Shown piece by piece: positions 14,027 to 35,851 of a stretch of DNA of 64,000 nt. The notes under the pieces are model-generated. The model was not told the DNA's origin, made no database searches, and saw nothing but the letters and a program-made list of their open reading frames with translations. A program made the translations under genes and the position numbers. The stretch spans positions 496,001 through 560,000 of the forward strand of contig OU015566.1 in the NCBI GenBank assembly GCA_907165135.1. The letters are read 5' to 3'. Origin of the DNA: Oikopleura dioica. Lineage: Eukaryota > Animalia > Chordata. How positions within the stretch are numbered: position 1 is the first letter of the stretch; each line of letters starts with the position of its first letter.

Positions 14027-14358
14027 TATGCGATCCCGGGCCCAGAGGACCAAGGATCGAGTCGAGGGAAGCCGAGAGCTTGCCCTCCGGAAAGGCCATT
14101 ACCTGGCTGACCTTCGCTGCGCCCGAGCAACGCTCAGACGCCGCAGAGGTCCAGCGAGGTAGGGGAGAGAAATCAGCCCAACCTTTTCGAAAAATAAGAA
14201 CGTGTCCCCAACCTAACCCATCTTCAGGTTCGTCTTGGTTCAAGCCTACGCCGGAGCAGCACGAAGATCATCTTCCCTGTCTTTCGGTATCTGTGCAAAT
14301 AAAAGGACGCAAGTCCGGACCAAATACAAACGAGTGTTAGATTGTGGAACGCATAACG
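14027..14358 (+). repeat. 5' LTR (possibly lacking its upstream part)
   Basis: Identical to 35502-35833 except CACGAAGATCAT vs CACGAATTTCAT. Contains AATAAA ~60 nt before the end and ends in ...GCATAACG rather than the canonical CA. Confidence 0.85.
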
Positions 14359-14370
14359 TGGTGACTGAAG
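14359..14370 (+). promoter_or_regulatory. Putative primer-binding site
   Basis: TGGTGACTGAAG directly follows the LTR. The first 7 nt (TGGTGAC) match the complement of a typical eukaryotic tRNA-Trp 3' end, but the match is short. Confidence 0.5.
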
Positions 14371-14443
14371 CTCTCTTGAGCTTGGTACGAACGTAAGTCC
14401 CCATATCGAACCTCGCCGCTAGGGCGTATCCCTGTAGCGCAGG

Positions 14444-17400
14444 ATGAATGCATCTCCTGGAATCTTCAGTGACTTTGTGCCGCACGGCTATTATGCAGGC
14501 GATAGTAAAATTCCACGCCTGGCTTATGTAGATTCGGACTCTCCGACAAGAGCCCGTAAAACAAAGGATTGGTTCGCCAATTTAAATCTATACCTTAACG
14601 CTCTTGCAAATAAGCAGCTGCCGAAATCTCCGATGGTAGGACACGCCGAGAAGCTTCCGATGCTTTGGGGCGAGAGTATCAGCGAATGAGGCCCGAATTG
14701 GTCGGGAAAACTCGGAATCCCTTCGAGTTTGGAGGAGTTCGGTAAATGGAAAGATAACAACATGTACGATGGCCTAAAATACCTCGACAATATGGAATTA
14801 TCACAAGACAAGAAATCCTTCGTAGCTTCTAAACTTTACGATGGAATACAAGGTCGAAGACCAAAAGAAATGGTTCATGGGAACCTTCTTCCCTTATCTG
14901 ACGGTCGATGAATTCCCCCGCGTCCTCAGACCAGACACAGTCGAACAGGGAGTAATCACGGAAAAGAGTCCGACCACAATCATGCGCGAAATGATACGAT
15001 GTCTGGGGAAGGTGATCCTCCAGGCAGTGGAGCCAAATTCAAAAGCCGCCGTAGCAAATGGCGGGTTCGTTAATTTGCGGAGTTATTTGAGGACTCAGTT
15101 GGAACAATATTGCGAGACAGCGGGGGACAATCCATTCCTACATAATATACAGATCTTGCGCACCTTCGGGTCAGGCAGGTTTAGCTACGCACGCTCAAGG
15201 AATAGCTTCGACAATGTGCGCTCCTGCCTGAAAGAGTTCGTGGTGAACCATTCGAAAGATGTCAGATTTCCGGAAGGAACAGTATTGGGGAACACCACGA
15301 GCGCAAGGAGGACGATGTACTCGAAGGGCGAGTTAAAAAAATGGTCGCCGTTCATGGACATGATGACAATGTACTTCGTGGTGAGCCACCTGGGAAAGTC
15401 ACGATTGGAGGAGATCGCCCATAAAATAGCCAAGAAGTCCGGTGTGGACTTTAGCGAAGTAGGCCTGCGCGATTTCCTCTGCAATAAGAAATTAATTTTC
15501 GATGAATCGGACAAAGTGTCGGGCGCAAAGGGACATTTAATGCTAGAACATATTCAAATGGCAGCGGATATGTCCGTTAACGGTGACGTAAGTAGAGAGC
15601 TAGAGAAAGTTTATTCGGATTGGAAAAAAGCATCAGTGAAGAAACAGAAATACGAGAAAGTAAACGCCTTAGAGGACTTCTGCAGCGACGGCGCGGACGT
15701 TGGCTCCGACGATAATGTAGACGAGGTCAATGCAGTTTTCGGTAAGAGGAACAGACCTTTGGACATAAAAACTGCACTAAATAACAATCGTTACATTGTG
15801 GATACGAGGACAGGGGAAGTCTACGCTAAAACAAGCCTGACGTTATCTCCCACTGACCTGAAAACGGCAAACGAACGGCTTTCAAGGAAAAGCTTTTATC
15901 TCTTTCCAAAGCCGAGGCAGCAGCGCAGCGGGGGCTCCAAGGGCCGTCTAGCGAAACAGGCCTTTAACAGGGCCATGAATAAGTCGCAGAAGGTAAGAGG
16001 TAAAAACCAAACTTACCAGGCTTTCGCGATCGACCAGGAGGACGGGAAGTCGTCGGCACTGGTTGCGTTGCTGGACGAGCTCATGCGATCGAGCATGGAA
16101 GACGAAGACGATAGTGACGGGGAGCTGGAAGAAGTGGACGTCATCAGCGAATACGACGAATGCGGCATTGGTAAGTCTCCTCGTCCAAAAAATGATGCTA
16201 AAAAAGAATTTAGAGTAGAAGAAGAAGTCGCCAGCGTGGACGCGGAAAGAAGACGTTTCGACATAAATTTCGGCGTCCGCAACTGTGATAACAAAATAGA
16301 AAGATTTAAAGTACTTATCGAATCAGGTGCGTCGGTATCCGTCGCCCCGGAAGCATTCGTTTCGTTGTTAATGCATAATTGCAGTGAGAACGTGGCATTG
16401 CAGGATTGCACGAGCTCCAGGGCAAAGGTAGCCAGCGGAGGCTACATGGAGTTCCAGAATTATAACGCTAATTTTGACATCGAGTTTAATAGCGACTTGA
16501 AACTTACCTTTAGGGATTGTAAAGTTTACGCAGGACCACAGAAGACAGTCATCCTCGGGGCTGACAGCTTTGAGCGTAACAGGATCGAGGTCAAGTTCGA
16601 TGAAAACGATAAGTTGGAGGTGTGCGTAAATGGTAAGGCTTTACGCAGGATTTGGGAAGACTGTGAGGATATAGCGATTAATGACCCTGAAATCATGTTG
16701 ACCGGTGAGAAGCTAGAAAGAACGCCTACCTTGCATGATCATCTGTACGAGAACAGCGAGTTCTTAGACGAAAGACCTTCAAGGGCCTACGACCCTGATG
16801 GAACGAGGACATGGGCTCGGAAGCTGGAGAGAATACACGCTGAAAATCGGAAAAAGAACTCGAGGTCGAAGGTGCAGGTCGATCCGCTGGGCGACACGTT
16901 GTCGTCAGAACAGGTGGACATCGTTAATAAGGTTCTTGACGAATTCGAGGCCATTTTCGAAGGCACGGTGGGCCACGTGGCCGACAAGGAGTTTGAGGTG
17001 CACGCTAGAATAGACCCCGGAAATTCGGACCGGAGCCCAAAGTCGGCGCCGATCGGCTACGGTAAGAACTTACCGGAGAGCGTCATGAAGGCAATCGAGG
17101 ACAAATTAGACCAGGAAGCCGCGGAAGGGGTGCTGACGGTTCTACCTAAGCATATGACAGCGGCTAATTATATGAGCTTTTTCGGTGTTTCTAAAAAAGG
17201 CCCAAATGGCGAAGCCAGCGTCGAACTCACAGCTTCCAACGTCAGAGTGGTCGGCGATTGCGCACGCAGCGGCATTAACGACAAGACCGATCACGTGGCG
17301 AGGCAGACCGATTCGATACAGAGGATCCTCCAGCTTGCGGCCCCATTTACGAAGAAAGGTTTTGTCGCACAGGTAGACATCGGGGCCATGTTTCACTGCT

Positions 17401-20400
17401 TCGAGATCGAAGAAGAGTTGTGAAAACACTTCGTCATTCTTCACCCCAAAGTCGGCGAGTTGGCGTACCGACGGCTACCGATGGGATGGGTGAGCAGTCC
17501 AGTGTTGGCGCGCGAGATGATCACTAGAATCATGTACGATCACTTGGAGTACACTTCGATCTACATGGACGATTTTTTAATAGTGGCGGATTCGTTTGAC
17601 CAGTTGATTGAGAGGGTGCGAAAGGTCTTTAAGACACTCGCTTACCGTAATCTTCGACTCAAAGGGTCGAAATGCGTGATCGGTTCCAAGGACATTGTGC
17701 TTCTCGGGAGACGGGTAAAAGACGGCAAGATTTGCATGTCGAACCACATCCTAAAAAAGGCGTAAGCGGAAAATCCAAGCACAATTAAGACGGTGAAACA
17801 ACTAAAACGCTATATCGGAATAATAAACTATCTATCGATCGGGCTCCCCGCCGGACAGAAATGATGTGGAAGCTGAACGAGGCAGCATCAGGGTCAAAGA
17901 AATTAAGCGATTACGTGGAGTGGACACCAGAGTTACGAGCCTGCTACGAGAAGCTGGCGGAGGCAATAAACTCGCAAATGGTGGACCTTTATCCAATTGA
18001 AAAGGATCTCGATACCTTCCTTGTGGTCGACAGCTCTAATCTGGGCTCCGGGGGCTACCTTTATCAAAAGAAAGGGGACCGAACGCAAATCGTGCGACTT
18101 TGGTCCAGAAAGAGAGGGGATTCCCAATTGAAAACGCAGTGGAGCTCCTGTTAGTTGGAACTGCACGGCATTTTAAGCGCGACATTATGTTTCTGCTGGG
18201 AGATCGACTTCGTGTCTAAACCGGTAGTGATCATTACCGACTCTTTGTCGGTGAAAAAATTATTCGATAGAGCCAGGCAGGGGAAAGAGCTCAGCCTGGA
18301 CAAACGGATAAACGACCAAATAGTGAAGCTCCTGAGCTTCGACGTGGAGATTGTCTACGAGAAAGGGGAATCAACCAGGGTGAGAAATGGCGGGGGATAT
18401 TCTTGGGATGTCGCGCGCGCGCCAAAAAAACCTCCCAGGGCGTGTGGGAGGTTCTCGGCTTCTCACAGAGCGCGAGGGAGCTCCAATCCAAACGAGCCAC
18501 AGTGAAGGCGCACTACTGCTCTCGCGCTGCGCGGGATATTTGAAAAGAATAAGCGAGCGCTATTATCTCGGTGGGTGCACACTCTGACTAAATGAGATCA
18601 GATGCTTGAATTAATAAAGAATGATTTGTTTTTAATTTTTTATTGTAGAAAATATTAAAAAAGATTTTTACTCTAGAGTCTAGAGTCAAGACCTATCAAT
18701 GATAATGATAACATTATGATAATGACGTCCTTAAATTTTTATCAATCAATAAAATCAATAATTCCGAAGTATATAATGAATTGAATTTACTTCTGGCAAA
18801 GTTAAATATGGGAGTCACTATGTTATCGTTATTAGAAAATTTGGAAAAAATCCCATGTGACCGATAGGGTCCCTAAGATCATCATCTTGAACAGATTATT
18901 AGTCATTTTATTTTAAGTTAGTTAAATTATTTTTTTCGAGTTGAACTAGTGGTGAGTCTTATTCGGTCAAGCGCCCGCCTGTTTTGAACTGCTCCCCCGG
19001 GCTCTGTGAGCTCACAGCGCGTGCGGGGATCTTGTTTTTGAGGCACCTCACAAAGTTTTCTGTGATAATGGCGCCACCTCCCACACGCCCTGGGAGGTTT
19101 TTTTTCCGCGCGCTGGAGATCCCGCGCGAACCACGCGCCATTTTTCACCCTGGAATCAACCCAAATTGATCTTGCGGACTTTATCTCGAGAACAGATTAC
19201 CTGCTGAAAGAATGTGACGCCAAGTGCGCGGTCTGCAACGTAATTGATAAGTACGAGGCGGTGAACGAGATCCTGGGGCCAACCCTCGATTTGACGAGCG
19301 AGGAGACACTACCCTCGGTTAAGTTCGACAGATTCGAAGAGGTTTTCGCTTTCAAAGACGAGGCCGCCCTGAGAGCGACAATGCCGTCCCTGCGACACAG
19401 GCAAGTGTCGAGCTGGAAAAGCCGGAAAGACGCCGTCGAGGCGATCGTGACGAGAGGAGCCGCAAAGAGATCAGCTAGGAAACCGAAAGATGACTCGCTG
19501 AATCGTCTCGCCGAACGAATCCTGGAGCACCAGGGGAGCAGCTTTCTGAAAGATCGAGGATTAATCAAGGAAATTCAAGAGTGGGACGAAGTCACGAGGT
19601 GAGTGATCGAGTCAAAGCGCAAAAATGGTCGAATGCCAGGTCCCAAGGACCGCAAGGCGGAATCGTTACGAGGGTCCACGTACCTGTGTTCGAACGGCAC
19701 GCCAGAGATTCTCCGGAAAAGAAAAATAATGATCGGAACGCGAATATGCGAACCAGTGGTAATCCCGGAAGCCCTGGGCGCATCTGTTGCGAAGGCGTTC
19801 CATCGAGGTAATTGCGGGACGATTTCGCGCCTAAAGAATCTGGTCAAGGTGGAAGTTTGGTTCGCAAAGCTAGACAACGTCGTATCTGAGGAGGTGAAAA
19901 ATTGCCTCTCCTGCACTTACCAGCGCAACAGGGGAAAGATAGTAACCGGGTCTAACGAGTATGACGACCAGGACGCTTCTTTCGTCGGAGAAGTGCTGCT
20001 GGCAGACGTAGTCACGAGGAACAGCCACAAACAGTACGAAGAGTCGACCATGAAGTTTTACGTGGTCTCATGCGTCTTGTCGGGTTTCACAAGAATTTAT
20101 CACGTCAAAAATTCGGAGAATAACGCAGCCAGGGGATCAGACATCTTGCTCAAAGCGATAGGGGATTTCGACCGAGGCCTACGCACGAATTCTAAAATAA
20201 AGGTGGTTATGGACGGGAGCTCGATAAATAAGGGAATTAAAAACGCGACTTCTGGAACGAAATAAACGTGGAATTCATCCTCCCAGAGTCGCCGAGCCCG
20301 TCGAAAAACTTCTTATCGCCCCTGGACAGCAGGATCGCAAAGTTGAGCCCGGTGATACTCGCAGAGATGTGGAATAAAACTGACCCGAGGCTGATGGAGC

Positions 20401-21044
20401 TCCTCGTGCCCGACAAGCTGAACAGGACGAAGGGCGCCCATGGATACTCCCCAATGGAAATCTGGACCGGCCGGTCCGCGGTCGACGGCAAAAGAATCGA
20501 TATTGATATCGAAAAGATAAGAAAATTCGTTAGTGATAGCCGCGAACGCGCAAGAAATGCGGCGCTACGCCTGAACCGCGACGGAAGGTACAGATTACCA
20601 CTAGTGATCAAGCCGTTTGAGGAAGGAGATAAGTACGGGGGAGAGATGGTTTCGCCAATAAAGAAAGGGGATTTCATCCTCATCGAGGGGAATTACGATA
20701 AGAATAAGATGCATCCGTGGTTTAAAGTTTGCGAAACGCCCGAAATACCGGGGGGGATTGACTGGCTCAACGGGCAGGTCGGCACCCAGAAAATGGGGCT
20801 TGAGAACAAGAAGTTCTACACGTGGAGCTTCAAGAGCATTAAAGCGATAGTGGACGGAGACAACATCAACAAAGACGACATGAACAACTTTACGAAAATG
20901 ATGAGATGCTTCCTGCTCCAGGTCCCCGAGTTGTCGCTGCCCGAAGTAATGAAGCCAAGAAGCATCGTCACAAAAATTTTTGGAAAAAGAAAGACGGATT
21001 CGTTCATAATGAAATTATATTCTAAAGAAAAGGCGATGCAGTAG
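14444..21044 (+). pseudogene. gag-pol: gag-pol polyprotein (left copy), disrupted
   Basis: Protease VLIESGASVS, RT QVDIGAMFH / LPMGW / YMDDFLI, RNase H VVDSS / LELHGI / ITDS, integrase H..CLSC, LADV, VMDG, GYSPMEIWTGR. In-frame stops end at 14689, 17423, 17765, 18154 and 19602; frameshifts lie near 14840, 17850 and 20240; a hAT insertion starts at 18376. Confidence 0.9.
18376..19152. mobile_element. Non-autonomous hAT-like element (777 bp) in the RNase H region of the left arm
   Basis: TIRs CAGGGTGAGAAATGGCG / CGCCATTTTTCACCCTG, 8-bp TSD GAATCAAC at 18368-18375 and 19153-19160. The empty site is visible in the right arm (~30170). Confidence 0.95.
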
Positions 21045-21056
21045 TTTTAGAGCAGG

Positions 21057-24000
21057 TTATTTGAATCGTTGCACTCGGCTAGGCACGGCGGCTGGTGGAG
21101 GAGGAAACTCGCCAGCAAGAGGTGGAGCAGGAGCAGGAGCAGTGACCAAGGAGGAAGTAGCGTCTTGAGCAACAGCAGTCTTAGCGGCGATGGACTAAAA
21201 GGCGAAATTAAAGCTGAAACGCTAGAGTTGAAATTACCGCAAGAGGAGTCGGGTTAAGCTTCTTCTTCTTGAAAGGGTTGAAGCGAGAAGCAGCCGATGA
21301 AGCGGGAGCGGACGTTACAATTTGCTCATCGAGAGCAGTAAGAGCGTGAGTGACAGCGGGCGAGGTATACGCAGCGGACGCCCCTTCTACTTGAGCTTTC
21401 TGCTGGGCTTCTTGCTGGGCGAGTCGCAAGACGGATAAATCGTGTTCAGCTCGCGCATCAGCCAATTTAGCCCGACGTTGAGCGTCTTGGCTTTTCAATT
21501 CCGCCTCCTGCTGCAGCTGCTGGAACTTTATTTGGTCGCGTTGAGCGCGACTCTGCTGCTGACGCATTCTCGCAGCGCTATTTTCACTTCCCTGAGGCAT
21601 TAAGGCCGTAAAGCACTCCAAACATTGCTCGCATGTCGCTGTTATTCGACCAAGCATGCAGTTGGCCACAAACAGGACGGCGGCGGCCGACCAAAACCTA
21701 GAATTACTTTACCAATACGGAAATTTTAATCGATATTTACCAAGTAATTGGCCGGGCGCCGCCGCCCCGCCAGTGATCTTCGGTAGTCGTGCGAGAAGCT
21801 GCACCATGCGAGGAATGACAAGCGCCTGGAGTTCGGTCGCGGAGAGGCTGATGTCGCGTTGATTGCGCAGTAGATCGACACTGGTGTCGTCGTTGTAGTG
21901 ATCGTCGGTGTACGCGGGAAGCTTGTCCTGATCGACCATGTAGTCGATAAAGCCGGAATCGTACATGGATCCACGCCGGGAGCGAGCAGGCACGAAAGCG
22001 GAGGTTGAATCGGAAGCGAAATCGTCAAGGTTGTCGACAAAGGAAGGTAATTTATCCTGGTCGACCATGTAATCGATGAAACCAGAGTCGTACATGGCCC
22101 CACGGCGGGAACGAGCAGGAACGAATTCGATCACCTCATCGTCGGTGGAGGAAGGAAGCTTGTCTTGATCGACCATGTAGTCGACAAATCCAGACTCGTA
22201 CATCGACCCACGCTTCGATCGAGCCGGAACGGAACCGTCTTCAGTCGGAGAAGTGAGAGACCGAGGTGTGCGGGTAAAAGGCAAAGTGAGGTTGTAAGAG
22301 GCGGCCAGCGGAGCGGTGAAGTTGTAGAGCTGGTCGTAAACGCTAGAGCTAAGATGGGTTACGTCGTAGTCGAAGTCGCCGGAGACAATGTAGCGGTCCA
22401 TGTCGAAAACGAGACCAGAAACCGATCTCCCAAAGTCGCGGAAGATCGATCGCAATACCTCTGCAGTTTCGGCGGAAAAATTTTAGCAACAAGATGATCG
22501 GCAGCGACTTCAACATGGCGGATTCTGAATTCTCCGGCGATCTCCATCAGAGCGGAACCGTTCATGTCCTGAAGCGCTTGAAGGTGCTCCTTGGGAATCG
22601 TAACGTTGAGTAGGCCGAGGTGCAAATCGTCGTCAGTGACCCAGCGGACTTCCGGCTCGACCAGCTCATCATCGGTAAATCGCTTGGCAAGCCAAGTCTA
22701 AAGCGAAAATTAATTTAACTCGTCGATCATTAATCTTTGACTAATTAAACCGTTAAAAACTTACGCAACCCTTGACGACCCAAAATACGAGCCGGCAGAA
22801 CCACACGATGAGCCTCCAGAGGCCTGTCCAGTAAAGGATGTAGGCGACGAAGGAGAGGAAGATGGTGAAGAGGAGAGCGTAGATAGCGTATTGAACACAG
22901 ACGATTTTGAGAGCGCTGGGGGCCGGACGACCTTCTGAACCGGCAGCCAAAACTCTTGACGACGGTAAGCCTTCGCCAGGCGCCGCTGAAGATGTCGACG
23001 CCTTCGGACATTGAAGAGGCGATGAAAACGGCGGGGTCCTGAATACTTGGGCATCTGGCCCCCATCGATGGCATCGGCTTGTTTCTCTAGGTCTGAAATG
23101 TATTTGCGGTCGTCGTCGGTAACAAATTTAGAGTACGCTGGTGGGGAATCCATTTTTGGATGTGATATAACGAAAGAATTAGCGTAATTATATAGCCAGA
23201 AAGGGAGGGCGCCCGCCCTCAAAGGTCAGCTGAAAGAAGGTTGAACAGAGGCGCTCAACAGCTGATGCGATAGAGTGATGTTGATTTTGGATAGCGGTGG
23301 CGCAGTAAGAGGCAATAAGGCGTTCGCACACAAGAAAACGTTGATGCGATTCAAGGTAAATAGTAAGAGCGGCGGCCAGCTGTTCGCCAAAGGATTCAAA
23401 AGAGCCGTCATCGCCGTCACGCACTTGACTCGTAACTCTAGGAGGAACGTCAAGGTTGAAATGAAGCTCGACAGGGAAATCCATCATCCGTATTGAGTCG
23501 GCAACAAAACTAAAAACGATTACGCGGAGCGAGCAAAATCTCTTACGCGAAAAAAGCTACAAAATCCTGATAAGGGCTCTCGGAGACCCAGGACAACAGC
23601 TGCGCGGGAGTGCGGTCCTCATAAACCTGCTTGCGAAGCTGATAAAGACGGTGTGGTACGTATAGGTCGTTATGAGGGCGAAAGGAACCAAGGAAAGCAA
23701 CATCGAATTCAGGGAAAAGTGGATAAACTCGCTCCAGCTTTACGCTAAAATAAGTAACGATATACCGAACCCAAATAAGACCGACCCAAATGGAGAATCG
23801 CCGAACGTTCTAGCATCCTGCAGCCATCGATATCGCCTTATATCACCAGTGGAAACAGGCTGCGAAAATCCCCTCGTCCGAGATTCGAAGTAGGAGGAAG
23901 ACGCGGTCGCTTCATAGCACTCATCGATGAACTCGAAAATCTTCTTTTCTTCAGAGGCAGCAGGAGAATCAGGAATGGGTTCGTAATCAGCGTCATCGTC

Positions 24001-24336
24001 GCTAGCAAGTCCGGCTTTGCAAGTGGATCCGGGGGGAGAAGCTTCCACCTTCGCCCTCTTGACATCAACAGGTTTGATGACGGTACCATCAAGGTCCGCC
24101 AATTTCCGCTTGTTTATCGTCGTTATTTGAGCCGCGCGTTTTGCAGCGACTAAGTAAATGTAAAAGCTAGTCGGCCAATAGAGGGATCAAGCAGCGCTAT
24201 TTACATGCATTTGCGGACAGATCCCAGTTAAACAGCGGAGACTTACCCAAAGATCTGCGAGCTCGTTTACGAACAGGCAATTTCGCGTTTTGGGAGATCT
24301 CAATCCCAATTTGCGCCATTACGGTATCGTCAAGCC
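21057..24336 (-). pseudogene. Left-arm copies of accessory genes A (5'-truncated), B (extra 1-nt frameshift) and C (intact frame)
   Basis: Mirror of 25000-28273. Gene A lacks its ATG here because that lies in the unique spacer. There is a 1-nt homopolymer loss near 22455, and the 7 nt missing from right-arm gene C are present. Confidence 0.75.
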
Positions 24337-24427
24337 TCTAGAGGCGTCGGTTGCCGGGCTGTCTTCAGTTTTTCGTTTCTTCGTTCGCGAAACCAAATTC
24401 CTAGCGATAGCGTTATTTTATTATTTT

Positions 24428-24844
24428 CTAGAGAGACTTTACCTCGAGCTGACTAGCGGCTTGGGCGAACGCGAATTGCGCTTTGTGCATTTCCAGTCGG
24501 AGGTTTTCAACCTTGTTTGCCAGGGATTCGTTGAACTTGAGCTGAATGTTGAAGAGCGCGTTAATTGCTTCTTGGCGGGCTCTTTCGTCGTCGGACTCGC
24601 AGTCTATGGTTGCCAGGTCCTTCGTCGAGAAGTCTTGCTTGCAGCCGGGGCACTTGTTCCGATCCCAGCTCATGCTATCTTCGAAACAAAGTCGGCAAAG
24701 GCGGAAGCAGTTGACGTCCTTTCCCAGCCCGCAGAAGTGAGCTCGTTCTGGATGCATGTCGAGGAACGGTTTGTTGCACTCTTCGCAAAAGTCCTTTTCT
24801 CTCAGGAGATTGATCCACGGTTCATTCATCGCCTTCCTCGGCAT
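24428..24844 (-). CDS. RING-finger-like protein with C-terminal coiled coil (in the 663-bp unique spacer)
   Basis: CEEC...C...CFRLCRLC-x11-CPGC, resembling C4C4 (NOT4-type) RING spacing, followed by a heptad-like region (ARQEAINALFNIQLKFNESLANKVENLRLEM). First in-frame ATG at 24844. Confidence 0.7.
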   Translation of the reverse strand: MPRKAMNEPWINLLREKDFCEECNKPFLDMHPERAHFCGLGKDVNCFRLCRLCFEDSMSWDRNKCPGCKQDFSTKDLATIDCESDDERARQEAINALFNIQLKFNESLANKVENLRLEMHKAQFAFAQAASQLEVKSL

Positions 24845-24956
24845 TTTGTCTTTTCGGTTTCTCACGAGTTATTCTTTTAGACTGCCTCGCGTCCATTGGT
24901 CCTCGATAAATTTTCGATCCACGCTGCCTTCAAGCCAGATTCACAGCCGCGCTTCG

Positions 24957-26148
24957 ATGTCGACTACCGCTCAAACTCGTAGCCGTTCGAAGCGAAAACG
25001 GCTTGACGATACCGTAATGGCGCAAATTGGGATTGAGATCTCCCAAAACGCGAAATTGCCTGTTCGTAAACGAGCTCGCAGATCTTTGGGTAAGTCTCCG
25101 CTGTTTAACTGGGATCTGTCCGCAAATGCATGTAAATAGCGCTGCTTGATCCCTCTATTGGCCGACTAGCTTTTACATTTACTTAGTCGCTGCAAAACGC
25201 GCGGCTCAAATAACGACGATAAACAAGCGGAAATTGGCGGACCTTGATGGTACCGTCATCAAACCTGTTGATGTCAAGAGGGCGAAGGTGGAAGCTTCTC
25301 CCCCCGGATCCACTTGCAAAGCCGGACTTGCTAGCGACGATGACGCTGATTACGAACCCATTCCTGATTCTCCTGCTGCCTCTGAAGAAAAGAAGATTTT
25401 CGAGTTCATCGATGAGTGCTATGAAGCGACCGCGTCTTCCTCCTACTTCGAATCTCGGACGAGGGGATTTTCGCAGCCTGTTTCCACTGGTGATATAAGG
25501 CGATATCGATGGCTGCAGGATGCTAGAACGTTCGGCGATTCTCCATTTGGGTCGGTCTTATTTGGGTTCGGTATATCGTTACTTATTTTAGCGTAAAGCT
25601 GGAGCGAGTTTATCCACTTTTCCCTGAATTCGATGTTGCTTTCCTTGGTTCCTTTCGCCCTCATAACGACCTATACGTACCACACCGTCTTTATCAGCTT
25701 CGCAAGCAGGTTTATGAGGACCGCACTCCCGCGCAGCTGTTGTCCTGGGTCTCCGAGAGCCCTTATCAGGATTTTGTAGCTTTTTTCGCGTAAGAGATTT
25801 TGCTCGCTCCGCGTAATCGTTTTTAGTTTTGTTGCCGACTCAATACGGATGATGGATTTCCCTGTCGAGCTTCATTTCAACCTTGACGTTCCTCCTAGAG
25901 TTACGAGTCAAGTGCGTGACGGCGATGACGGCTCTTTTGAATCCTTTGGCGAACAGCTGGCCGCCGCTCTTACTATTTACCTTGAATCGCATCAACGTTT
26001 TCTTGTGTGCGAACGCCTTATTGCCTCTTACTGCGCCACCGCTATCCAAAATCAACATCACTCTATCGCATCAGCTGTTGAGCGCCTCTGTTCAACCTTC
26101 TTTCAGCTGACCTTTGAGGGCGGGCGCCCTCCCTTTCTGGCTATATAA
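24957..26148 (+). CDS. Accessory gene A: 4 exons, predicted 338-aa basic/NLS-rich protein of unknown family
   Basis: Exons 24957-25089, 25187-25550, 25592-25789 and 25827-26148. Introns are GTAAGT..TTAG (97 nt), GTCGGT..TTAG (41 nt) and GTAAGA..TTAG (37 nt), and all phases match to give one open frame of 1017 nt. Contains KRKR, KRARR and KRAK motifs. Confidence 0.75.
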
Positions 26149-26182
26149 TTACGCTAATTCTTTCGTTATATCACATCCAAAA

Positions 26183-27695
26183 ATGGATTCCCCACCAGCG
26201 TACTCTAAATTTGTTACCGACGACGACCGCAAATACATTTCAGACCTAGAGAAACAAGCCGATGCCATCGATGGGGGCCAGATGCCCAAGTATTCAGGAC
26301 CCCGCCGTTTTCATCGCCTCTTCAATGTCCGAAGGCGTCGACATCTTCAGCGGCGCCTGGCGAAGGCTTACCGTCGTCAAGAGTTTTGGCTGCCGGTTCA
26401 GAAGGTCGTCCGGCCCCCAGCGCTCTCAAAATCGTCTGTGTTCAATACGCTATCTACGCTCTCCTCTTCACCATCTTCCTCTCCTTCGTCGCCTACATCC
26501 TTTACTGGACAGGCCTCTGGAGGCTCATCGTGTGGTTCTGCCGGCTCGTATTTTGGGTCGTCAAGGGTTGCGTAAGTTTTTAACGGTTTAATTAGTCAAA
26601 GATTAATGATCGACGAGTTAAATTAATTTTCGCTTTAGACTTGGCTTGCCAAGCGATTTACCGATGATGAGCTGGTCGAGCCGGAAGTCCGCTGGGTCAC
26701 TGACGACGATTTGCACCTCGGCCTACTCAACGTTACGATTCCCAAGGAGCACCTTCAAGCGCTTCAGGACATGAACGGTTCCGCTCTGATGGAGATCGCC
26801 GGAGAATTCAGAATCCGCCATGTTGAAGTCGCTGCCGATCATCTTGTTGCTAAAATTTTTTCCGCCGAAACTGCAGAGGTATTGCGATCGATCTTCCGCG
26901 ACTTTGGGAGATCGGTTTCTGGTCTCGTTTTCGACATGGACCGCTACATTGTCTCCGGCGACTTCGACTACGACGTAACCCATCTTAGCTCTAGCGTTTA
27001 CGACCAGCTCTACAACTTCACCGCTCCGCTGGCCGCCTCTTACAACCTCACTTTGCCTTTTACCCGCACACCTCGGTCTCTCACTTCTCCGACTGAAGAC
27101 GGTTCCGTTCCGGCTCGATCGAAGCGTGGGTCGATGTACGAGTCTGGATTTGTCGACTACATGGTCGATCAAGACAAGCTTCCTTCCTCCACCGACGATG
27201 AGGTGATCGAATTCGTTCCTGCTCGTTCCCGCCGTGGGGCCATGTACGACTCTGGTTTCATCGATTACATGGTCGACCAGGATAAATTACCTTCCTTTGT
27301 CGACAACCTTGACGATTTCGCTTCCGATTCAACCTCCGCTTTCGTGCCTGCTCGCTCCCGGCGTGGATCCATGTACGATTCCGGCTTTATCGACTACATG
27401 GTCGATCAGGACAAGCTTCCCGCGTACACCGACGATCACTACAACGACGACACCAGTGTCGATCTACTGCGCAATCAACGCGACATCAGCCTCTCCGCGA
27501 CCGAACTCCAGGCGCTTGTCATTCCTCGCATGGTGCAGCTTCTCGCACGACTACCGAAGATCACTGGCGGGGCGGCGGCGCCCGGCCAATTACTTGGTAA
27601 ATATCGATTAAAATTTCCGTATTGGTAAAGTAATTCTAGGTTTTGGTCGGCCGCCGCCGTCCTGTTTGTGGCCAACTGCATGCTTGGTCGAATAA
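26183..27695 (+). CDS. Accessory gene B: membrane glycoprotein (Env-like) with triple furin-site/peptide repeat
   Basis: N-terminal MDSPPAY and a hydrophobic segment YAIYALLFTIFLSFVAYILYWTGLW. A phase-0 intron at 26572-26638 (GTAAGT..CTTTAG) joins it in frame to the 26711 ORF, which has sequons NVT, NGS, NFT, NLT and R-x-x-R sites. A 43-nt intron at 27597-27639 removes the apparent stop. The frame is unresolved at ~26290-26420. Confidence 0.65.
27107..27423 (+). repeat. Three tandem coding repeats (V/F)PARS(K/R)RG(S/A)MY(E/D)SGF(V/I)DYMVDQDKLP
   Basis: Near-identical peptide in three units, while third codon positions differ (TCT GGA TTT / TCT GGT TTC / TCC GGC TTT). Confidence 0.9.
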
Positions 27696-27736
27696 CAGCG
27701 ACATGCGAGCAATGTTTGGAGTGCTTTACGGCCTTA

Positions 27737-28273
27737 ATGCCTCAGGGAAGTGAAAATAGCGCTGCGAGAATGCGTCAGCAGCAGAGTCGCGCTCAACGCG
27801 ACCAAATAAAGTTCCAGCAGCTGCAGCAGGAGGCGGAATTGAAAAGCCAAGACGCTCAACGTAATTGGCTGATGCGCGAGCTGAACACGATTTATCCGTC
27901 TTGCGACTCGCCCAGCAAGAAGCCCAGCAGAAAGCTCAAGTAGAAGGGGCGTCCGCTGCGTATACCTCGCCCGCTGTCACTCACGCTCTTACTGCTCTCG
28001 ATGAGCAAATTGTAACGTCCGCTCCCGCTTCATCGGCTGCTTCTCGCTTCAACCCTTTCAAGAAGAAGAAGCTTAACCCGACTCCTCTTGCGGTAATTTC
28101 AACTCTAGCGTTTCAGCTTTAATTTCGCCTTTTAGTCCATCGCCGCTAAGACTGCTGTTGCTCAAGACGCTACTTCCTCCTTGGTCACTGCTCCTGCTCC
28201 TGCTCCACCTCTTGCTGGCGAGTTTCCTCCTCCACCAGCCGCCGTGCCTAGCCGAGTGCAACGATTCAAATAA
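27737..28273 (+). CDS. Accessory gene C: Gln/Ala-rich coiled-coil protein with Pro-rich tail (7-nt deletion in this copy)
   Basis: MPQGSENSAARMRQQQSRAQRDQIKFQQLQQEAEL.... A phase-0 43-nt intron at 28093-28135 (GTAATT..TTTTAG) continues into SIAAKTAVAQ...EFPPPPAAVPSRVQRFK*. The stop lies 12 nt from the convergent pol stop. Confidence 0.65.
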
Positions 28274-28285
28274 CCTGCTCTAAAA

Positions 28286-31200
28286 CTACTGCATCGCCTT
28301 TTCTTTAGAATATAATTTCATTATGAACGAATCCGTCTTTCTTTTTCCAAAAATTTTTGTGACGATGCTTCTTGGCTTCATTACTTCGGGCAGCGACAAC
28401 TCGGGGACCTGGAGCAGGAAGCATCTCATCATTTTCGTAAAGTTGTTCATGTCGTCTTTGTTGATGTTGTCTCCGTCCACTATCGCTTTAATGCTCTTGA
28501 AGCTCCACGTGTAGAACTTCTTGTTCTCAAGCCCCATTTTCTGGGTGCCGACCTGCCCGTTGAGCCAGTCAATCCCCCCCGGTATTTCGGGCGTTTCGCA
28601 AACTTTAAACCACGGATGCATCTTATTCTTATCGTAATTCCCCTCGATGAGGATGAAATCCCCTTTCTTTATTGGCGAAACCATCTCTCCCCCGTACTTA
28701 TCTCCTTCCTCAAACGGCTTGATCACTAGTGGTAATCTGTACCTTCCGTCGCGGTTCAGGCGTAGCGCCGCATTTCTTGCGCGTTCGCGGCTATCACTAA
28801 CGAATTTTCTTATCTTTTCGATATCAATATCGATTCTTTTGCCGTCGACCGCGGACCGGCCGGTCCAGATTTCCATTGGGGAGTATCCATGGGCGCCCTT
28901 CGTCCTGTTCAGCTTGTCGGGCACGAGGAGCTCCATCAGCCTCGGGTCAGTTTTATTCCACATCTCTGCGAGTATCACCGGGCTCAACTTTGCGATCCTG
29001 CTGTCCAGGGGCGATAAGAAGTTTTTCGACGGGCTCGGCGACTCTGGGAGGATGAATTCCACGTTTATTTCGTTCCAGAAGTCGCGTTTTTTAATTCCCT
29101 TATTTATCGAGCTCCCGTCCATAACCACCTTTATTTTAGAATTCGTGCGTAGGCCTCGGTCGAAATCCCCTATCGCTTTGAGCAAGATGTCTGATCCCCT
29201 GGCTGCGTTATTCTCCGAATTTTTGACGTGATAAATTCTTGTGAAACCCGACAAGACGCATGAGACCACGTAAAACTTCATGGTCGACTCTTCGTACTGT
29301 TTGTGGCTGTTCCTCGTGACTACGTCTGCCAGCAGCACTTCTCCGACGAAAGAAGCGTCCTGGTCGTCATACTCGTTAGACCCGGTTACTATCTTTCCCC
29401 TGTTGCGCTGGTAAGTGCAGGAGAGGCAATTTTTCACCTCCTCAGATACGACGTTGTCTAGCTTTGCGAACCAAACTTCCACCTTGACCAGATTCTTTAG
29501 GCGCGAAATCGTCCCGCAATTACCTCGATGGAACGCCTTCGCAACAGATGCGCCCAGGGCTTCCGGGATTACCACTGGTTCGCATATTCGCGTTCCGATC
29601 ATTATTTTTCTTTTCCGGAGAATCTCTGGCGTGCCGTTCGAACACAGGTACGTGGACCCTCGTAACGATTCCGCCTTGCGGTCCTTGGGACCTGGCATTC
29701 GACCATTTTTGCGCTTTGACTCGATCACTCACCTCGTGACTTCGTCCCACTCTTGAATTTCCTTGATTAATCCTCGATCTTTCAGAAAGCTGCTCCCCTG
29801 GTGCTCCAGGATTCGTTCGGCGAGACGATTCAGCGAGTCATCTTTCGGTTTCCTAGCTGATCTCTTTGCGGCTCCTCTCGTCACGATCGCCTCGACGGCG
29901 TCTTTCCGGCTTTTCCAGCTCGACACTTGCCTGTGTCGCAGGGACGGCATTGTCGCTCTCAGGGCGGCCTCGTCTTTGAAAGCGAAAACCTCTTCGAATC
30001 TGTCGAACTTAACCGAGGGTAGTGTCTCCTCGCTCGTCAAATCGAGGGTTGGCCCCAGGATCTCGTTCACCGCCTCGTACTTATCAATTACGTTGCAGAC
30101 CGCGCACTTGGCGTCACATTCTTTCAGCAGGTAATCTGTTCTCGAGATAAAGTCCGCAAGATCAATTTGGGTTGATTCCCCTTTCTCGTAGACAATCTCC
30201 ACGTCGAAGCTCAGGAGCTTCACTATTTGGTCGTTTATCCGTTTGTCCAGGCTGAGCTCTTTCCCCTGCCTGGCTCTATCGAATAATTTTTTCACCGACA
30301 AAGAGTCGGTAATGATCACTACCGGTTTAGACACGAAGTCGATCTCCCAGCAGAAACATAATGTCGCGCTTAAAATGCCGTGCAGTTCCAACTAACAGGA
30401 GCTCCACTGCGTTTTCAATTGGGAATCCCCTCTCTTTCTGGACCAAAGTCGCACGATTTGCGTTCGGTCCCCTTTCTTTTGATAAAGGTAGCCCCCGGAG
30501 CCCAGATTAGAGCTGTCGACCACAAGGAAGGTATCGAGATCCTTTTCAATTGGATAAAGGTCCACCATTTGCGAGTTTATTGCCTCCGCCAGCTTCTCGT
30601 AGCAGGCTCGTAACTCTGGTGTCCACTCCACGTAATCGCTTAATTTCTTTGACCCTGATGCTGCCTCGTTCAGCTTCCACATCATTTCTGTCCGGCGGGG
30701 GAGCCCGATCGATAGATAGTTTATTATTCCGATATAGCGTTTTAGTTGTTTCACCGTCTTAATTGTGCTTGGATTTTCCGCTTACGCCTTTTTTAGGATG
30801 TGGTTCGACATGCAAATCTTGCCGTCTTTTACCCGTCTCCCGAGAAGCACAATGTCCTTGGAACCGATCACGCATTTCGACCCTTTGAGTCGAAGATTAC
30901 GGTAAGCGAGTGTCTTAAAGACCTTTCGCACCCTCTCAATCAACTGGTCAAACGAATCCGCCACTATTAAAAAATCGTCCATGTAGATCGAAGTGTACTC
31001 CAAGTGATCGTACATGATTCTAGTGATCATCTCGCGCGCCAACACTGGACTGCTCACCCATCCCATCGGTAGCCGTCGGTACGCCAACTCGCCGACTTTG
31101 GGGTGAAGAATGACGAAGTGTTTTCACAACTCTTCTTCGATCTCGAAGCAGTGAAACATGGCCCCGATGTCTACCTGTGCGACAAAACCTTTCTTCGTAA

Positions 31201-32082
31201 ATGGGGCCGCAAGCTGGAGGATCCTCTGTATCGAATCGGTCTGCCTCGCCACGTGATCGGTCTTGTCGTTAATGCCGCTGCGTGCGCAATCGCCGACCAC
31301 TCTGACGTTGGAAGCTGTGAGTTCGACGCTGGCTTCGCCATTTGGGCCTTTTTTAGAAACACCGAAAAAGCTCATATAATTAGCCGCTGTCATATGCTTA
31401 GGTAGAACCGTCAGCACCCCTTCCGCGGCTTCCTGGTCTAATTTGTCCTCGATTGCCTTCATGACGCTCTCCGGTAAGTTCTTACCGTAGCCGATCGGCG
31501 CCGACTTTGGGCTCCGGTCCGAATTTCCGGGGTCTATTCTAGCGTGCACCTCAAACTCCTTGTCGGCCACGTGGCCCACCGTGCCTTCGAAAATGGCCTC
31601 GAATTCGTCAAGAACCTTATTAACGATGTCCACCTGTTCTGACGACAACGTGTCGCCCAGCGGATCGACCTGCACCTTCGACCTCGAGTTCTTTTTCCGA
31701 TTTTCAGCGTGTATTCTCTCCAGCTTCCGAGCCCATGTCCTCGTTCCATCAGGGTCGTAGGCCCTTGAAGGTCTTTCGTCTAAGAACTCGCTGTTCTCGT
31801 ACAGATGATCATGCAAGGTAGGCGTTCTTTCTAGCTTCTCACCGGTCAACATGATTTCAGGGTCATTAATCGCTATATCCTCACAGTCTTCCCAAATCCT
31901 GCGTAAAGCCTTACCATTTACGCACACCTCCAACTTATCGTTTTCATCGAACTTGACCTCGATCCTGTTACGCTCAAAGCTGTCAGCCCCGAGGATGACT
32001 GTCTTCTGTGGTCCTGCGTAAACTTTACAATCCCTAAAGGTAAGTTTCAAGTCGCTATTAAACTCGATGTCAAAATTAGCGT
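28286..32082 (-). pseudogene. pol: Partial pol (RT-RH-IN), inverted copy
   Basis: One continuous frame over 3.8 kb, interrupted only by four in-frame stops (31124 TGA, 30782 TAA, 30392 TAG, 29729 TGA). Begins downstream of the protease active site. Confidence 0.9.
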
Positions 32083-32149
32083 CGGTGCCCTGATCAGAAA
32101 TAGCCAAAACTAACGCAAGTCTGAGATCTAAAAAAACAACCGTTTAGAA

Positions 32150-32434
32150 ATGAACTCTCGCGGTACAAAACGCCAAAGAGAACCGGATGACGGCGAGTAC
32201 GCGTTCACGCTGCCAAAAAGGCTCAGACGGAACATCGACGCATCGACAGCGGTGGAATCAACGCTCGTTCAAGCGGTGCTATCCACATAACGCGAAAAGA
32301 ACATCATCGCGATCGAAATGGCCTTAGAAAGAGCCATCGAGCTGGATGTAATTGCCACAACCGTGGAAGAACTAACGAAAGAGAACAGCGAAGGAAAGTT
32401 ACGAGCCTTTTATTTATCTTTTCGGACAGATTAA
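32150..32434 (+). pseudogene. Small accessory ORF with NLS-like motifs and one in-frame stop
   Basis: MNSRGTKRQREPDDGEYAFTLPKRLRR...VLST*REKNIIAIEMALERAIELDVIATTVEELTKE; TAA at 32288. Confidence 0.45.
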
Positions 32435-34144
32435 AAAACAGTGCAGTAACTAAAAGTAGCGTTCAAAACTCTGATCGAGGCACGCAAGTCGAAGAGCCAG
32501 CTGGACTCGGATTTGGCAGCGGAGAAGCTGAAGTCGTTGCTCAAAAGTCAGGTGAGTCGGGGAAATCAGGACGGTAAGGATATCGCAAGTCCTCGGCACC
32601 GGTGTAGACGGGGCGACGAGCATTCTCTCCTTCGGCAAGTTCCTCCTCGATAGGGATGACGGCTAAGGCACCAACTTGGGGAAGACCATCCGGGTAGAGC
32701 TGCCGATAAATCTCGCCCAGCCAAAGTTCGCCTAAGCCTTCGGGGAGAAGGTTGACCATCCCTAGAATACGTATAAAAGAGTAAAATCCCGGGAAACTTA
32801 CGATTACGCCGACGATCATGATGGACGTAAAAGCAATCCATCGGAGCGGCTTCCAAACGGCCACGCCACGGATCCGCAACTACCTGTCGGAAAGCCGGGG
32901 GGAAAACAGAAGCTCGGCTAATCATGTCAGCGAACAAGGGATAAAAACCGTACTTCAGGACCAGGCAACAGCGATGCAGATAAGAGAGCTGGTCTCGTCC
33001 TAAATGAAGCTGATGAGTCTCTCGAGCAACACGAGGAGTTTTGGCCACTAGCAGAAAGCACAGGTACTTACGGATCCCAAAAAGGATGAGGCTCGTCGGA
33101 TAGATAGAGATACATCGCCAGAAAAAGCAACAAATCTAGATCGTAACCGGGCCAAACTTCCTCGGTGGCACGTAACTGCATCGCCACTAAGAATAGATTT
33201 TAGGCTCGATCATCATCCTGGATTCAACCGTAGGGTCGGCCAGCGAATTCCAAGTCGAGGAGACGAACAACTCGGCGGGGATCGGCGAAAATCTGGATAG
33301 CGCGGAGCAGACGTTGCAGAAAGGTAAAATCCTCGGAAAGCACGGCATGTGGCACAATCAACGTGTTGGCTTCCTCGCAATTGAAGTCAGGCTCCGTGAG
33401 TTTCTAAAGAAAAATTTTAGCCGAGCCTCGGGAAGAATAATCACCTGTACGAAACGAAAACACCATAGATATTGAAACGGCGAATCATCAAAGCCGTAAG
33501 TGCTCCAAGAACCGTCAATTGTTTGCGACTCGTGCTCGTAATGACCTGAAGTTCAGCTACAATTACGCCCGTATCACTACCCTCACCAGTCTGGTCCAAG
33601 AGCTCGACAGCCTCCTTTGTCGTCATCGTCAGGTATTTCAGACTTCGGTTGAGACAGGACCTATCAAAAAATTCAAGATCGACGCGAAGAAAACAATCTA
33701 CCTTTTCGCGTGAACCAACATGTCCGAATTAGCATCGAATTCCTCAGCCGCAGCATCGACGGCCGCGCAGTAACTTCGGAACATATCGCGGAAGTCCACG
33801 CTGTTGTGACGAGAATATGGTGGCACGACAATTCTCACGAGCCCAGCCCGAGCCTTGCCAGTAGAGAAATCTACGGTCCCCAGTTAAACCTTCCCGTCAC
33901 TTCGCAATTAGTTATCCCTACCGTCAAAATACGCATTAGCATAAAATTAACCCCTAAAGAGGTCGGAAGGCCGAATCTCCTTGTTCGCGAAAGCTTCCTG
34001 TAATAGATTAAAGTTTACGAATCTGGCATGTTGCCCCTGGAATCGCTGAGCTCGTCGCATGTGAGGAGACGAAAGCGAATACTCGAGGCGGCTGAAATCG
34101 AATCCATGTTCTCTAGCTCGAGCATTCTCGGACAGTTTTCGCAT
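32431..34144 (-). CDS. Accessory gene D: multi-intron antisense gene of unknown family (some lesions)
   Basis: GT-AG introns at 33661-33701, 33546-33586, 33404-33444 (41 nt each) and 33187-33228 (42 nt) give a continuous frame ...MFRSYCAAV...KEAVELLDQTGHYEHESQTIDGSWSTYGFDDSPFQYLWCFRFVQKLTEPDF...WPGYDLDLLLFLAMYLYLSDEPHPFWDP. There is a further intron at 32762-32801. The 32900-33070 region and both termini are uncertain. Confidence 0.7.
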
Positions 34145-34203
34145 AGGCTCCGCATTGTCAATGCGACGGAAATCGCTCAGGTGTCTAAAAATATCGTTTC
34201 AGT

Positions 34204-35287
34204 ATGGTAGAGGTGGAGAAAATCGGAGAAAAGCTGAAGAAAACGTCTCTACTTGAAGCGGCTGGCCGAGAGGAAAATGCGGACGAAGAGTCCTCCGTGC
34301 GAGCCAATCAGGGCTCAAGCTCGGGCGCTTCAAAGTTCCTCCCGTCTTTTCTCGAGATTGGTGAAGCTGAACCGGAAACTAAATTAGCCTCGAAAGAGCA
34401 ACTGGCCGAAATCGAGCAACACGCCAGCGACTCCAAGGACGACGCGATCATGGCCGCGTTGAAAAATGGGGTGAGGCCCGGGACGTTCATGCGGACGTTC
34501 AAAGGTCTCTCGTTCGTCGCGAAAGTATCAAAGGACCCGGTCTGCACGAACTTCCTGACAGATTTGGGGAACTGGATGACAAAAATGTCGGAGATCGATA
34601 GAGGACTCTACGCCTTACCCGAAAATGTAAGTAAAACAAAATTATCTCTGACTTACTCCCGGATTAAAGCGAGTGCATCAGCCGCTGTCCCCGCCATTGG
34701 TGTGTATGACGGTCTGGGCGCAGAAAGAGCTGTACAAGCTATGCACGGAGGCGCCCAAACCACTAGCGGGCTTCATCCTCCATGTTTGGCACAAACACGG
34801 AACAGGATTGACGGGCGATAACGGCGCTCGAGTATCCCTTCAAGAGGTCGATTCAATGAAGGACGTGGAGCGTTTCGTCGAAGAGCAAACATCGGAGACG
34901 ACTTGCGCAAATATCGCGGAAGGAGCGGTGGACGCGTTCAACCGCTTTTGCGCGGAATTCGACATCTCCAGCAAGACTCCAGAGTTCCCCGAGTGCGGAT
35001 CGAACGAAGAAATAGTCGAGTGGGCCAGAACAGCGAAACGCATCTTCGACGAAAATAACGCTAAAATGAAAGGTTACAAAGAGTCGCTGATGACAATGTC
35101 CCGCTGGACACTGCAGGGAACGTACAACTACCTAACGCACGAGTCCGCGCTCAAGAAAATCGCAGCTGTCGCCAACTTCGACCACTTCCAAGGCAATACC
35201 CTAGTCACAGTCTTGGATAACGGCAAGCTGCGAGGCTTCACGATGAATAACGGGACAGTACAGAAAAGTAAGCCCCGGTTGATATAA
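34204..35287 (+). CDS. Accessory gene E: 2 exons, predicted 346-aa protein of unknown family, on the element's sense strand
   Basis: Exons 34204-34626 and 34670-35287. A 43-nt phase-0 intron GTAAGT..TTAAAG fuses the two overlapping ORF-track ORFs into one frame. Confidence 0.75.
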
Positions 35288-35501
35288 ATTTTTCACTCAC
35301 GAAATGTTCAGCTCAGCGGCTACCAGGATTCATGCGCGGGTGGAAGGTACTCACAGGTGGACGATCGAACGTGGATTACCGGAAAGGAGGATTCGTGTCG
35401 GAATCAGGAAACGGATTCAAACGCCCGAATCCAAGCGAGAAGTACGACGAGCCCAGAGCGAAACGACGATGGGGAAATGGCTACGGCCAGCGCCGGTGGA
35501 A

Positions 35502-35833
35502 TATGCGATCCCGGGCCCAGAGGACCAAGGATCGAGTCGAGGGAAGCCGAGAGCTTGCCCTCCGGAAAGGCCATTACCTGGCTGACCTTCGCTGCGCCCG
35601 AGCAACGCTCAGACGCCGCAGAGGTCCAGCGAGGTAGGGGAGAGAAATCAGCCCAACCTTTTCGAAAAATAAGAACGTGTCCCCAACCTAACCCATCTTC
35701 AGGTTCGTCTTGGTTCAAGCCTACGCCGGAGCAGCACGAATTTCATCTTCCCTGTCTTTCGGTATCTGTGCAAATAAAAGGACGCAAGTCCGGACCAAAT
35801 ACAAACGAGTGTTAGATTGTGGAACGCATAACG
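35502..35833 (+). repeat. 3' LTR
   Basis: Direct repeat of 14027-14358 with 2 mismatches. GC-rich sequence at 35290-35501 may be an upstream LTR portion absent on the left. Confidence 0.85.
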
Positions 35834-35851
35834 AACGTATTTTGTTTCGTA

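Follow-up and report, generated by a model that had tools for sequence, protein, structure and literature searches.

A pol-defective, internally duplicated Ty3/gypsy element of Oikopleura dioica with a 7.4-kb cargo of six or seven predicted spliced genes

The DNA analysed here, referred to below as the window, is a stretch of 64,000 nucleotides (nt) from the chordate Oikopleura dioica (assembly GCA_907165135.1, contig OU015566.1, positions 496,001 to 560,000 of the forward strand), and it contains at 14027-35830 a retroelement that stands out as an island of ~0.50 GC within flanking DNA of ~0.35 GC. The element is bounded by two direct long terminal repeats (LTRs), which differ by 2 mismatches over 329 nt (99.4% identical), and carries a primer-binding site (PBS) in which 11 of 12 nt match the tRNA 3' end listed, in the part of the PMC13524379 supplement consulted, for two env-bearing O. 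dioica gypsy elements of ~9 kb. The PBS is followed by a gag-pol gene and, between pol and the 3' LTR, by a cargo of predicted genes on both strands (Table 1).

Pol has the order protease, reverse transcriptase (RT), RNase H (RH) and integrase (PR-RT-RH-IN), with Pfam matches to RVT_1 (E 1e-12), RNase H (E 3e-8) and, weakly, an integrase zinc domain (E 0.04-0.13); the protease motif is degenerate and was placed by comparison with relatives. The best solved-structure match of the RT is Ty3 RT (E 1.8e-16), with retroviral RTs at 1.6e-11 or weaker. Two direct LTRs, a tRNA PBS and this domain order are those of Ty3/gypsy LTR retrotransposons, and the retroviral-clade RT and sense env that define Retroviridae are not found: none of the sense genes of the cargo (E, RING and a small open reading frame, ORF) looks like a glycoprotein. 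By its LTRs, domain order and RT, the element is of the Ty3/gypsy type and not a retrovirus.

A preliminary description of this DNA had already called the element gypsy-type, an assignment that holds, and had left unmentioned four in-frame stops in pol (17421, 17763, 18152, 19600), all carried by both arms of the duplication described below. The arm-1 gag-pol is also broken by a 775-nt insertion and 1-nt indels, and the copy is non-autonomous and not intact. Two other accounts of the stops were rejected: an alternative genetic code, as the same codons terminate other ORFs and the frames of relatives stay open when read with the standard code, and mini-introns, as relatives are collinear at those positions. 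Intact ORFs and 4-5-nt target-site duplications are the hallmarks of recent Tor copies, the O. dioica elements covered in the available part of PMC4402516, and this copy has neither.

Much of the element is present twice, in inverted orientation. The two arms, each carrying pol, C, B and A, differ by 0 substitutions, three 1-nt homopolymer indels, one 7-nt indel and the insertion, which is found in arm 1 only. In X1, a single deep DNA read set that may be the source of the window, short-read contigs span both arm junctions and break at the insertion site, and depth is about twofold higher on the arms (222/153) than on the single-copy cargo (131/98), so the 7-kb inverted duplication is real and not an assembly artefact; X3, from another sample, also spans the junction at 32082/32083. 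Both rearrangement junctions (24334-24351, 32079-32089) touch halves of one short palindrome and show 3-4-nt microhomologies, which fits a single template-switch event. The arrangement suggests that the RING spacer and the block starting at 32083 were neighbours in the parent element, and RING, lying within the flipped spacer, would be a sense gene in the parent plan. Without arm 2 and the insertion the element measures 13,936 nt, with 7,374 nt between the pol stop and the 3' LTR, which bears out the ~14 kb and ~7 kb first estimated by collapsing the duplication.

The order and strands of the cargo genes are those given in the preliminary description, which counted about seven of them; a multi-gene cargo with predicted introns is upheld, and the number may be six because B and C are possibly one gene. 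The genes are densely packed on both strands with spacers of 12-172 nt, and exon-by-exon models place 14 GT-AG introns of 37-97 nt where at least 12 had been proposed, with the junctions 25089/25187, 26571/26639 and 34626/34670 exact in the sequence. The median intron of O. dioica is 48-51 nt (PMC8008620, available in part). Introns A2 and D2 have weak donors, and the D4 acceptor was first placed 3 nt short of its AG. Three of the predicted introns, one in RING and two in E, lie on the sense strand, that of the genomic RNA, all with canonical donors, and according to X1 the frame switch at E1 does not stem from a read error. Within B (near 26413) and D (near 33078) X1 differs from the window by one base, as does X3 in D, so the window frameshifts there are likely assembly errors. 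Under thresholds chosen with the sequence in view, a T-rich acceptor whose use would join two open frames is reached from 5 of the 7 GTAAG donors on coding strands but from only 4 of 21 on control strands. In 500 simulations such passes averaged 0.48 and never numbered 5; intron-like signals exceed chance.

Additionally, several lines of evidence suggest that the cargo encodes proteins. The O. dioica public gene models P0029, P0030 and P0034, which are predictions and not transcripts, are identical to window exons letter for letter and employ A1, B1, B2, C1 and the RING donor. In a HMMER search of 1.84 billion proteins, whose query was a natural frame comprising parts of A, B and C, five proteins were recovered, two of them models from the same locus and three diverged: two homologues of A, P0031 (42%) and P0033 (36%), and one of C, P0032 (34%). 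P0033 aligns with both A exons flanking the 37-nt intron, and the 12 intervening residues are exactly those predicted by intron removal. P0032 lies ~320 gene numbers away from P0029 on the same annotated chromosome. Within B, the differences among three 25-codon repeats fall on third codon positions in 37 of 47 cases, with 8 on first and 2 on second positions (pS 0.70, pN 0.07), and no alternative frame shows the third-position pattern without stops. The earlier proposal that the cargo is coding is thus supported by the B repeats, the A and C homologues and the excess of intron signals, three lines that do not depend on how the exons were drawn, and on this comparative evidence the cargo is protein-coding and under protein-level selection. 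A codon model trained on gag-pol gave the right frame for sense genes and often a shadow frame for antisense ones, and was not used as evidence. That the cargo is non-coding filler, its introns being chance placements or placements masking assembly errors, could draw on the two 1-nt window errors in B and D and the weak A2 and D2 donors; this account is largely refuted by the pN/pS of the B repeats and by the homologues, and also faces the intron test, the collinearity of P0033 and the strand bias described below, so that we give it hardly any credence.

B begins with a basic N-terminus and a strong hydrophobic segment, followed by a Cys-free domain (a 329-aa exon) with four N-glycosylation sequons, in which the three repeats each carry an R-X-K/R-R site. 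C has a hydrophobic segment, a Cys cluster and a coiled coil; its stop lies 12 nt from that of pol, and its arm-1 copy is without the 7-nt gap. P0032, with a hydrophobic segment and a coiled coil besides its signal-like start and acidic stretch, aligns with C at 31% over 157 columns, and by eye also with the sequence immediately ahead of the 27597-27639 intron, in a frame different from that of B, so C would have coding sequence upstream of its apparent start. Judging from these alignments, either B and C form one two-segment membrane protein with frames offset near 27.57 kb in this copy, or an exon of C overlaps the end of B. It is this ambiguity that leaves the gene count at six or seven. 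As one protein, B and C may have an envelope-like layout, but an antisense one and without the cysteines of the Tor3b/4b Env: that Env, in the consulted part of PMC4402516, is encoded in sense and has seven conserved cysteines ahead of a transmembrane segment (TM) at its C-terminal end, whereas B is antisense and its 329-aa exon is Cys-free.

The other cargo proteins were characterized by motif, and all cargo functions except RING rest on such motifs. RING is the sole Pfam match on the cargo pieces, below the curated cut-off, and its best match among solved structures is at E 0.29; a minus-strand AATAAA lies within its intron (24417-24422). A has a basic N-terminus, an acidic linker and a conserved C-terminal domain, and a TATATAA (26141-26147) that overlaps its stop, 35 nt upstream of the B start, is a candidate internal promoter. 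The coding-like frame of the small basic ORF carries on past three stops to ~32551. An AATAAA on the minus strand (32409-32414), ~130 nt past the D stop, is a likely polyadenylation signal of D. The last exon of E is Arg/Lys-rich (28% K+R) and extends 136 nt into the 3' LTR. Exact look-up of ORFs returned 0 of 10, and PHROGs 0 of 12 matches. Acceptor-like sites precede 4 of 8 start codons against 85 of 377 background sites, which is not significant, and trans-splicing therefore stays a lead; many O. dioica genes are trans-spliced, and operons have gaps of up to 60 nt (PMC7986045, available in part).

The relation of the cargo to the element is reflected in its silent sites. At fourfold-degenerate sites the A:T counts are 168:100 in gag-pol, 78:28 in sense cargo and 83:257 in antisense cargo read on its own strand (Fisher p=1.6e-19), so the bias follows the strand of the element and not that of the gene, and it is individually significant in six of the seven cargo genes (A, B, C, D, E and the small ORF). 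In nine pieces of host-like ORFs, picked by hand, A:T is 92:120 and the fourfold-site GC (GC4) 0.32, against 0.44-0.72 in the cargo. A bias that follows the would-be genomic-RNA strand would be expected after many rounds of reverse transcription, and the cargo, as far as composition can tell, is likely a long-time resident of the element. This is the main reason for which we prefer a standing cargo to a one-off capture. Our best explanation, which we consider probable, is that the locus holds a pol-broken, internally duplicated Ty3/gypsy copy with 7.4 kb of cargo, comprising six or seven predicted spliced genes that are likely a standing part of its lineage.

Several observations weigh against this explanation. 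Neither the X1 and X3 contigs nor the collection scans contained a further copy that joins pol, cargo and LTR in a single piece, and in X1 unbranched single-path contigs cross the cargo, so that the copy looks single. No 4-6-nt target duplication is present at the LTR ends, and no pure polypurine tract adjoins 35502, an 11-nt purine run lying ~110 nt upstream of the 3' LTR. The fourfold A:T of RING (8:5) is not significant alone, the GTAAG test missed E1 and D4, and the RNA runs X8 and X5 gave 0 and 1 window reads, too few to bear on the predicted junctions. No diverged homologue was recovered for the large B exon among 5,594 candidates, nor for E exon 2 in the few collections searched, an atlas among them; the deep protein-library search covered the A/B/C frame. 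Folds predicted for E exon 2 and the last exon of A reached a pLDDT of 50 and 64 with best Z of 6.5 and 5.8, and had no meaningful match.

The single copy in X1, the lack of a second linked copy or of a target duplication, and the presence of sense introns are also what a one-off chimera would leave, in which DNA recombination caught a block of host or foreign genes between pol and LTR in this copy only, and introns never had to survive reverse transcription. Such a chimera would not account for a silent-site bias on the element strand in six of seven cargo genes or for a GC unlike that of the host; RING is the sole cellular family in the cargo, E reads into the LTR, and the C stop lies close to the pol stop, all of which make us consider a chimera unlikely. 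X3 contains short, low-depth, diverged and unlinked pieces at RT, IN, D and E/LTR (28475-28861, 30969-31016, 33408-33978, 35364-35529), whose partial matching or clusters of substitutions point to a diverged relative in that sample, though such joints can stem from repeats.

RING proteins with a coiled coil and glycoproteins are common in large DNA viruses, and together with the dense two-strand packing and short spacers they could point to a gypsy element joined to part of the genome of a DNA virus, in a Teratorn-like composite moving partly as DNA. We hold this to be distinctly improbable, as the retro-type strand bias runs across the whole cargo and the LTRs are near-identical; no viral hallmark was found by Pfam, PHROGs, viral contigs or BFVD, which were weak searches. 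A DNA-virus origin of single genes is compatible with the standing cargo that we prefer. Less probable still is that the cargo arrived with the element and is now kept for the host, with pol dead and the unit immobile. In its favour, there are four stops in 1,264 pol codons and none in ~1,880 modelled cargo codons (P=0.003), a comparison that is partly circular because exons were drawn stop-free. Against it stand the identity of the LTRs, the lack of substitutions between the arms and the 7-nt gap in one copy of C; moreover, next to no sequence words of the window occur in 14 other runs labelled as the same species, which is no proof of absence.

Under the explanation of a standing cargo, the history of the copy would unfold as follows. 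The gag-pol, LTRs and PBS are those of the LTR retroelement itself, and the cargo would have been co-reverse-transcribed with them over a long time under protein-level selection, as the silent-site bias and the homologues suggest. The cargo genes would be expressed from internal divergent promoters (RING and A are 172 nt apart, D and E 48 nt) or as tandem units, using the mini-intron spliceosome of the host. Introns antisense to the genomic RNA are no obstacle for an RNA intermediate, and may have been kept because that RNA does not show them as introns. The three sense introns should be lost on retrotransposition, so the full-length RNA would need to escape splicing; by motif, the Arg-rich tail of E or the small basic ORF are candidate Rev-like protectors of this RNA. 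B, probably with C, is predicted to be a furin-processed membrane glycoprotein that takes the place of the Env of Tor elements; RING is predicted to act as a ubiquitin ligase, and A and D as nuclear regulators. Since pol stops coexist with near-identical LTRs, the copy may have been mobilised in trans after pol decay, with the template-switch inverted duplication and the DNA-transposon insertion following. For Tor3b/4b, internal env promoters have been described; the same source places the RNA of some elements in the nucleus and proposes that splicing is inhibited (PMC4402516, available in part).

An RT-RNase H search returned 16 proteins among 7,996 scored, six of them 37-63% identical and ten at <=28%. 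In an RT tree of 21 rows, built without retroviral, BEL or copia rows and without P0010, which was too short, the window falls on a long branch within a clade of 11 with support 100/100. This clade includes the O. dioica proteins P0006, P0021 and P0023 (gag-pol of 1,844-2,000 aa) and marine ENA gag-pol proteins of ~1,900-2,100 aa, and its members also have gag in common with the window. P0006, the nearest named relative, is 45% identical over RT-RH and carries no Tor label. The ENA contigs of clade proteins are 16,072 (P0009), 16,364 (P0026), 16,110 (P0027) and 19,430 nt (P0007) long, at 37% in RT-RH. P0009, P0026 and P0027 are near-identical and their contigs converge on ~16.2 kb, as expected of whole elements with ~10 kb beyond gag-pol. 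A metagenome scan for related loci gave one, of 1,387 nt and pol only, and none were found in viral contigs or prokaryote genomes. A wider reading, in which a marine gypsy lineage of 14-19 kb, found in Oikopleura and metagenomes, has a standing two-strand cargo of six or seven mini-intron genes, with an antisense envelope-like glycoprotein of a new type and a Rev-like factor preserving unspliced genomic RNA, is one we entertain as possible without expecting it. Under that reading, a complex-retrovirus layout would have arisen on its own outside Retroviridae, in the sister group of vertebrates.

Compared with known elements, for which the sources cited below were available in part, the claim that gypsy elements have at most one extra ORF is overstated: more than one extra ORF, or antisense ORFs, have been described in pol-LTR regions of 3-6.6 kb (PMC11963269, PMC7264820, PMC6431247). 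O. dioica Tor elements and the window element have in common the host, the gypsy-type pol and LTRs that are nearly identical and, as predicted here, a downstream gene with internal promoters (in Tor3b/4b) and a furin-cleaved membrane glycoprotein, and the PBS type matches that of two env-bearing O. dioica elements. Tor elements as described carry gag, pol and no more than one env, in sense, whereas here there are six or seven genes, four of them antisense, with internal mini-introns; the Tor3b/4b Env has the cysteines that the large B exon lacks, and Tor copies the 4-5-nt target duplication (PMC4402516). Plant Retand/Tat elements likewise have a long stretch between pol and LTR, of 2.9-6.6 kb, in which antisense ORFs are conserved whose function is unknown, but their 104 long antisense ORFs over ~63 clusters belong mostly to one TRP28 family, and "intron" appears as a word in neither text (PMC11963269, PMC7264820). 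Planarian Burro and plant Ogre are giant gypsy elements that encode much besides gag and pol, among it motifs of ubiquitin-related and RING type and homology to env; unlike here, the Burro extras lie mostly inside one polyprotein of 4,900-5,100 aa and Ogre has one to two extra ORFs (PMC6431247). The bdelloid Vesta, Juno and TelKA are animal gypsy elements with a varied ORF3, including small two-TM proteins with RXXR and a coiled coil, but with one extra ORF as a rule (PMC5408684).

Complex and foamy-like retroviruses, which reach 17 kb, likewise carry multiple accessory genes, genes in antisense and one that overlaps the 3' LTR (PMC2774666, PMC6431247). The window element differs in an RT nearer to Ty3, in having no sense env and in accessory genes with tiny introns of their own, and it resembles a complex retrovirus in gene content only. 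Terminon/Penelope-like retroelements keep introns; they are not LTR elements and belong to a different RT clade. They also have many accessory ORFs (PMC6431247). Extra coding as such is known from Retand, Ogre, Burro and bdelloid elements; the number of genes, their own mini-introns and the sense-strand introns were not found described. No such cargo is described in the Oikopleura literature searched, the 2004 Tor, 2010 genome and 2019 larvacean transposon papers and the PMC4402516 supplement lying outside the search; these may describe long Tor1/Tor2 elements.

Around the element, an 11-nt direct repeat (14000-14010, 35834-35844) is offset 16 and 3 nt from the LTR ends. The 8 nt upstream of one LTR agree with those upstream of the other at 6 positions, which may mean that the 5' LTR is truncated. 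The LTR and leader (14027-14440) fold better than 100 of 100 shuffles (z -2.4); tRNA and Rfam scans gave no matches. A high-copy inverted-repeat element, very deep in X1 and X3, lies 21 nt from the 3' LTR (35852-36246) and at 46983-47373 and 3291-3607. A multi-copy ORF-bearing family, 75-80% alike in DNA and either a gene family or a transposon, occurs at 4358-4711 (-), 10822-11193 (-) and 49569-49865 (+), and also at 1871-2116, 10348-10854, 38429-38767 and 50014-50394. Host genes with short introns lie at 47311-47907 (-) and 56600-58500 (-), possibly LITAF-like and potassium-channel-like by their motifs.

Table 1. Features of the retroelement, in window coordinates; introns are predicted.
Feature	Coordinates	Strand	Remarks
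5' LTR	14027..14355	+	329 nt; 10-nt terminal inverted repeat, 1 mismatch; AATAAA at 14298
PBS	14359..14370	+	begins 3 nt past 5' LTR
GTAAGT, candidate major splice donor	14393..14398	+	immediately after PBS
gag-PR-RT-RH-IN, single frame	14841..21044	+	~2,070 codons in parent plan; RT motif YMDD
Arm 1 of inverted duplication (pol, C, B, A)	16465..24336	+
Non-autonomous DNA-transposon-like insertion	18377..19151	.	775 nt; arm 1 only; terminal inverted repeats; 10-nt target duplication
RING + coiled-coil gene	24365..24844	-	~146 aa; intron 24442-24401
Arm 2 of inverted duplication (A, B, C, pol reversed)	25000..32082	-
Gene A, antisense to pol	25017..26148	+	~320 aa; introns 25090-25186, 25551-25591, 25790-25826; arm-1 copy 23188-24319 (-)
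Gene B, antisense	26183..27628	+	~460 aa; intron 26572-26638; arm-1 copy 21709-23153 (-)
Gene C, antisense, or C-terminal half of B	27597..28273	+	~185 aa or more; introns 27597-27639, 28093-28135; arm-1 copy 21060-21696 (-)
Small sense ORF, two basic clusters (NLS ORF)	32150..32551	+	46 codons to first stop
Gene D, antisense	32541..34155	-	>370 aa (~370 aa in six 3' exons, and a further 5' part); introns 33701-33661, 33455-33404, 33228-33187, 33071-33010, 32801-32762
Gene E, sense	34204..35637	+	~448 aa; introns 34627-34669, 35268-35311
3' LTR	35502..35830	+	329 nt

Genomes rich in accessory genes are thought to be a trait of retroviruses, the described extras of gypsy elements being one to two ORFs or polyprotein domains. 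Cargo of the kind predicted here is easily missed, as public models merge or break up these genes and list them among those of the host. If the explanation of a standing cargo is true, the complex-retrovirus plan would have arisen separately in a gypsy lineage that carries six or seven spliced genes. The kept sense introns would make the shielding of LTR-element RNA from the spliceosome testable in an animal with tiny introns and trans-splicing.

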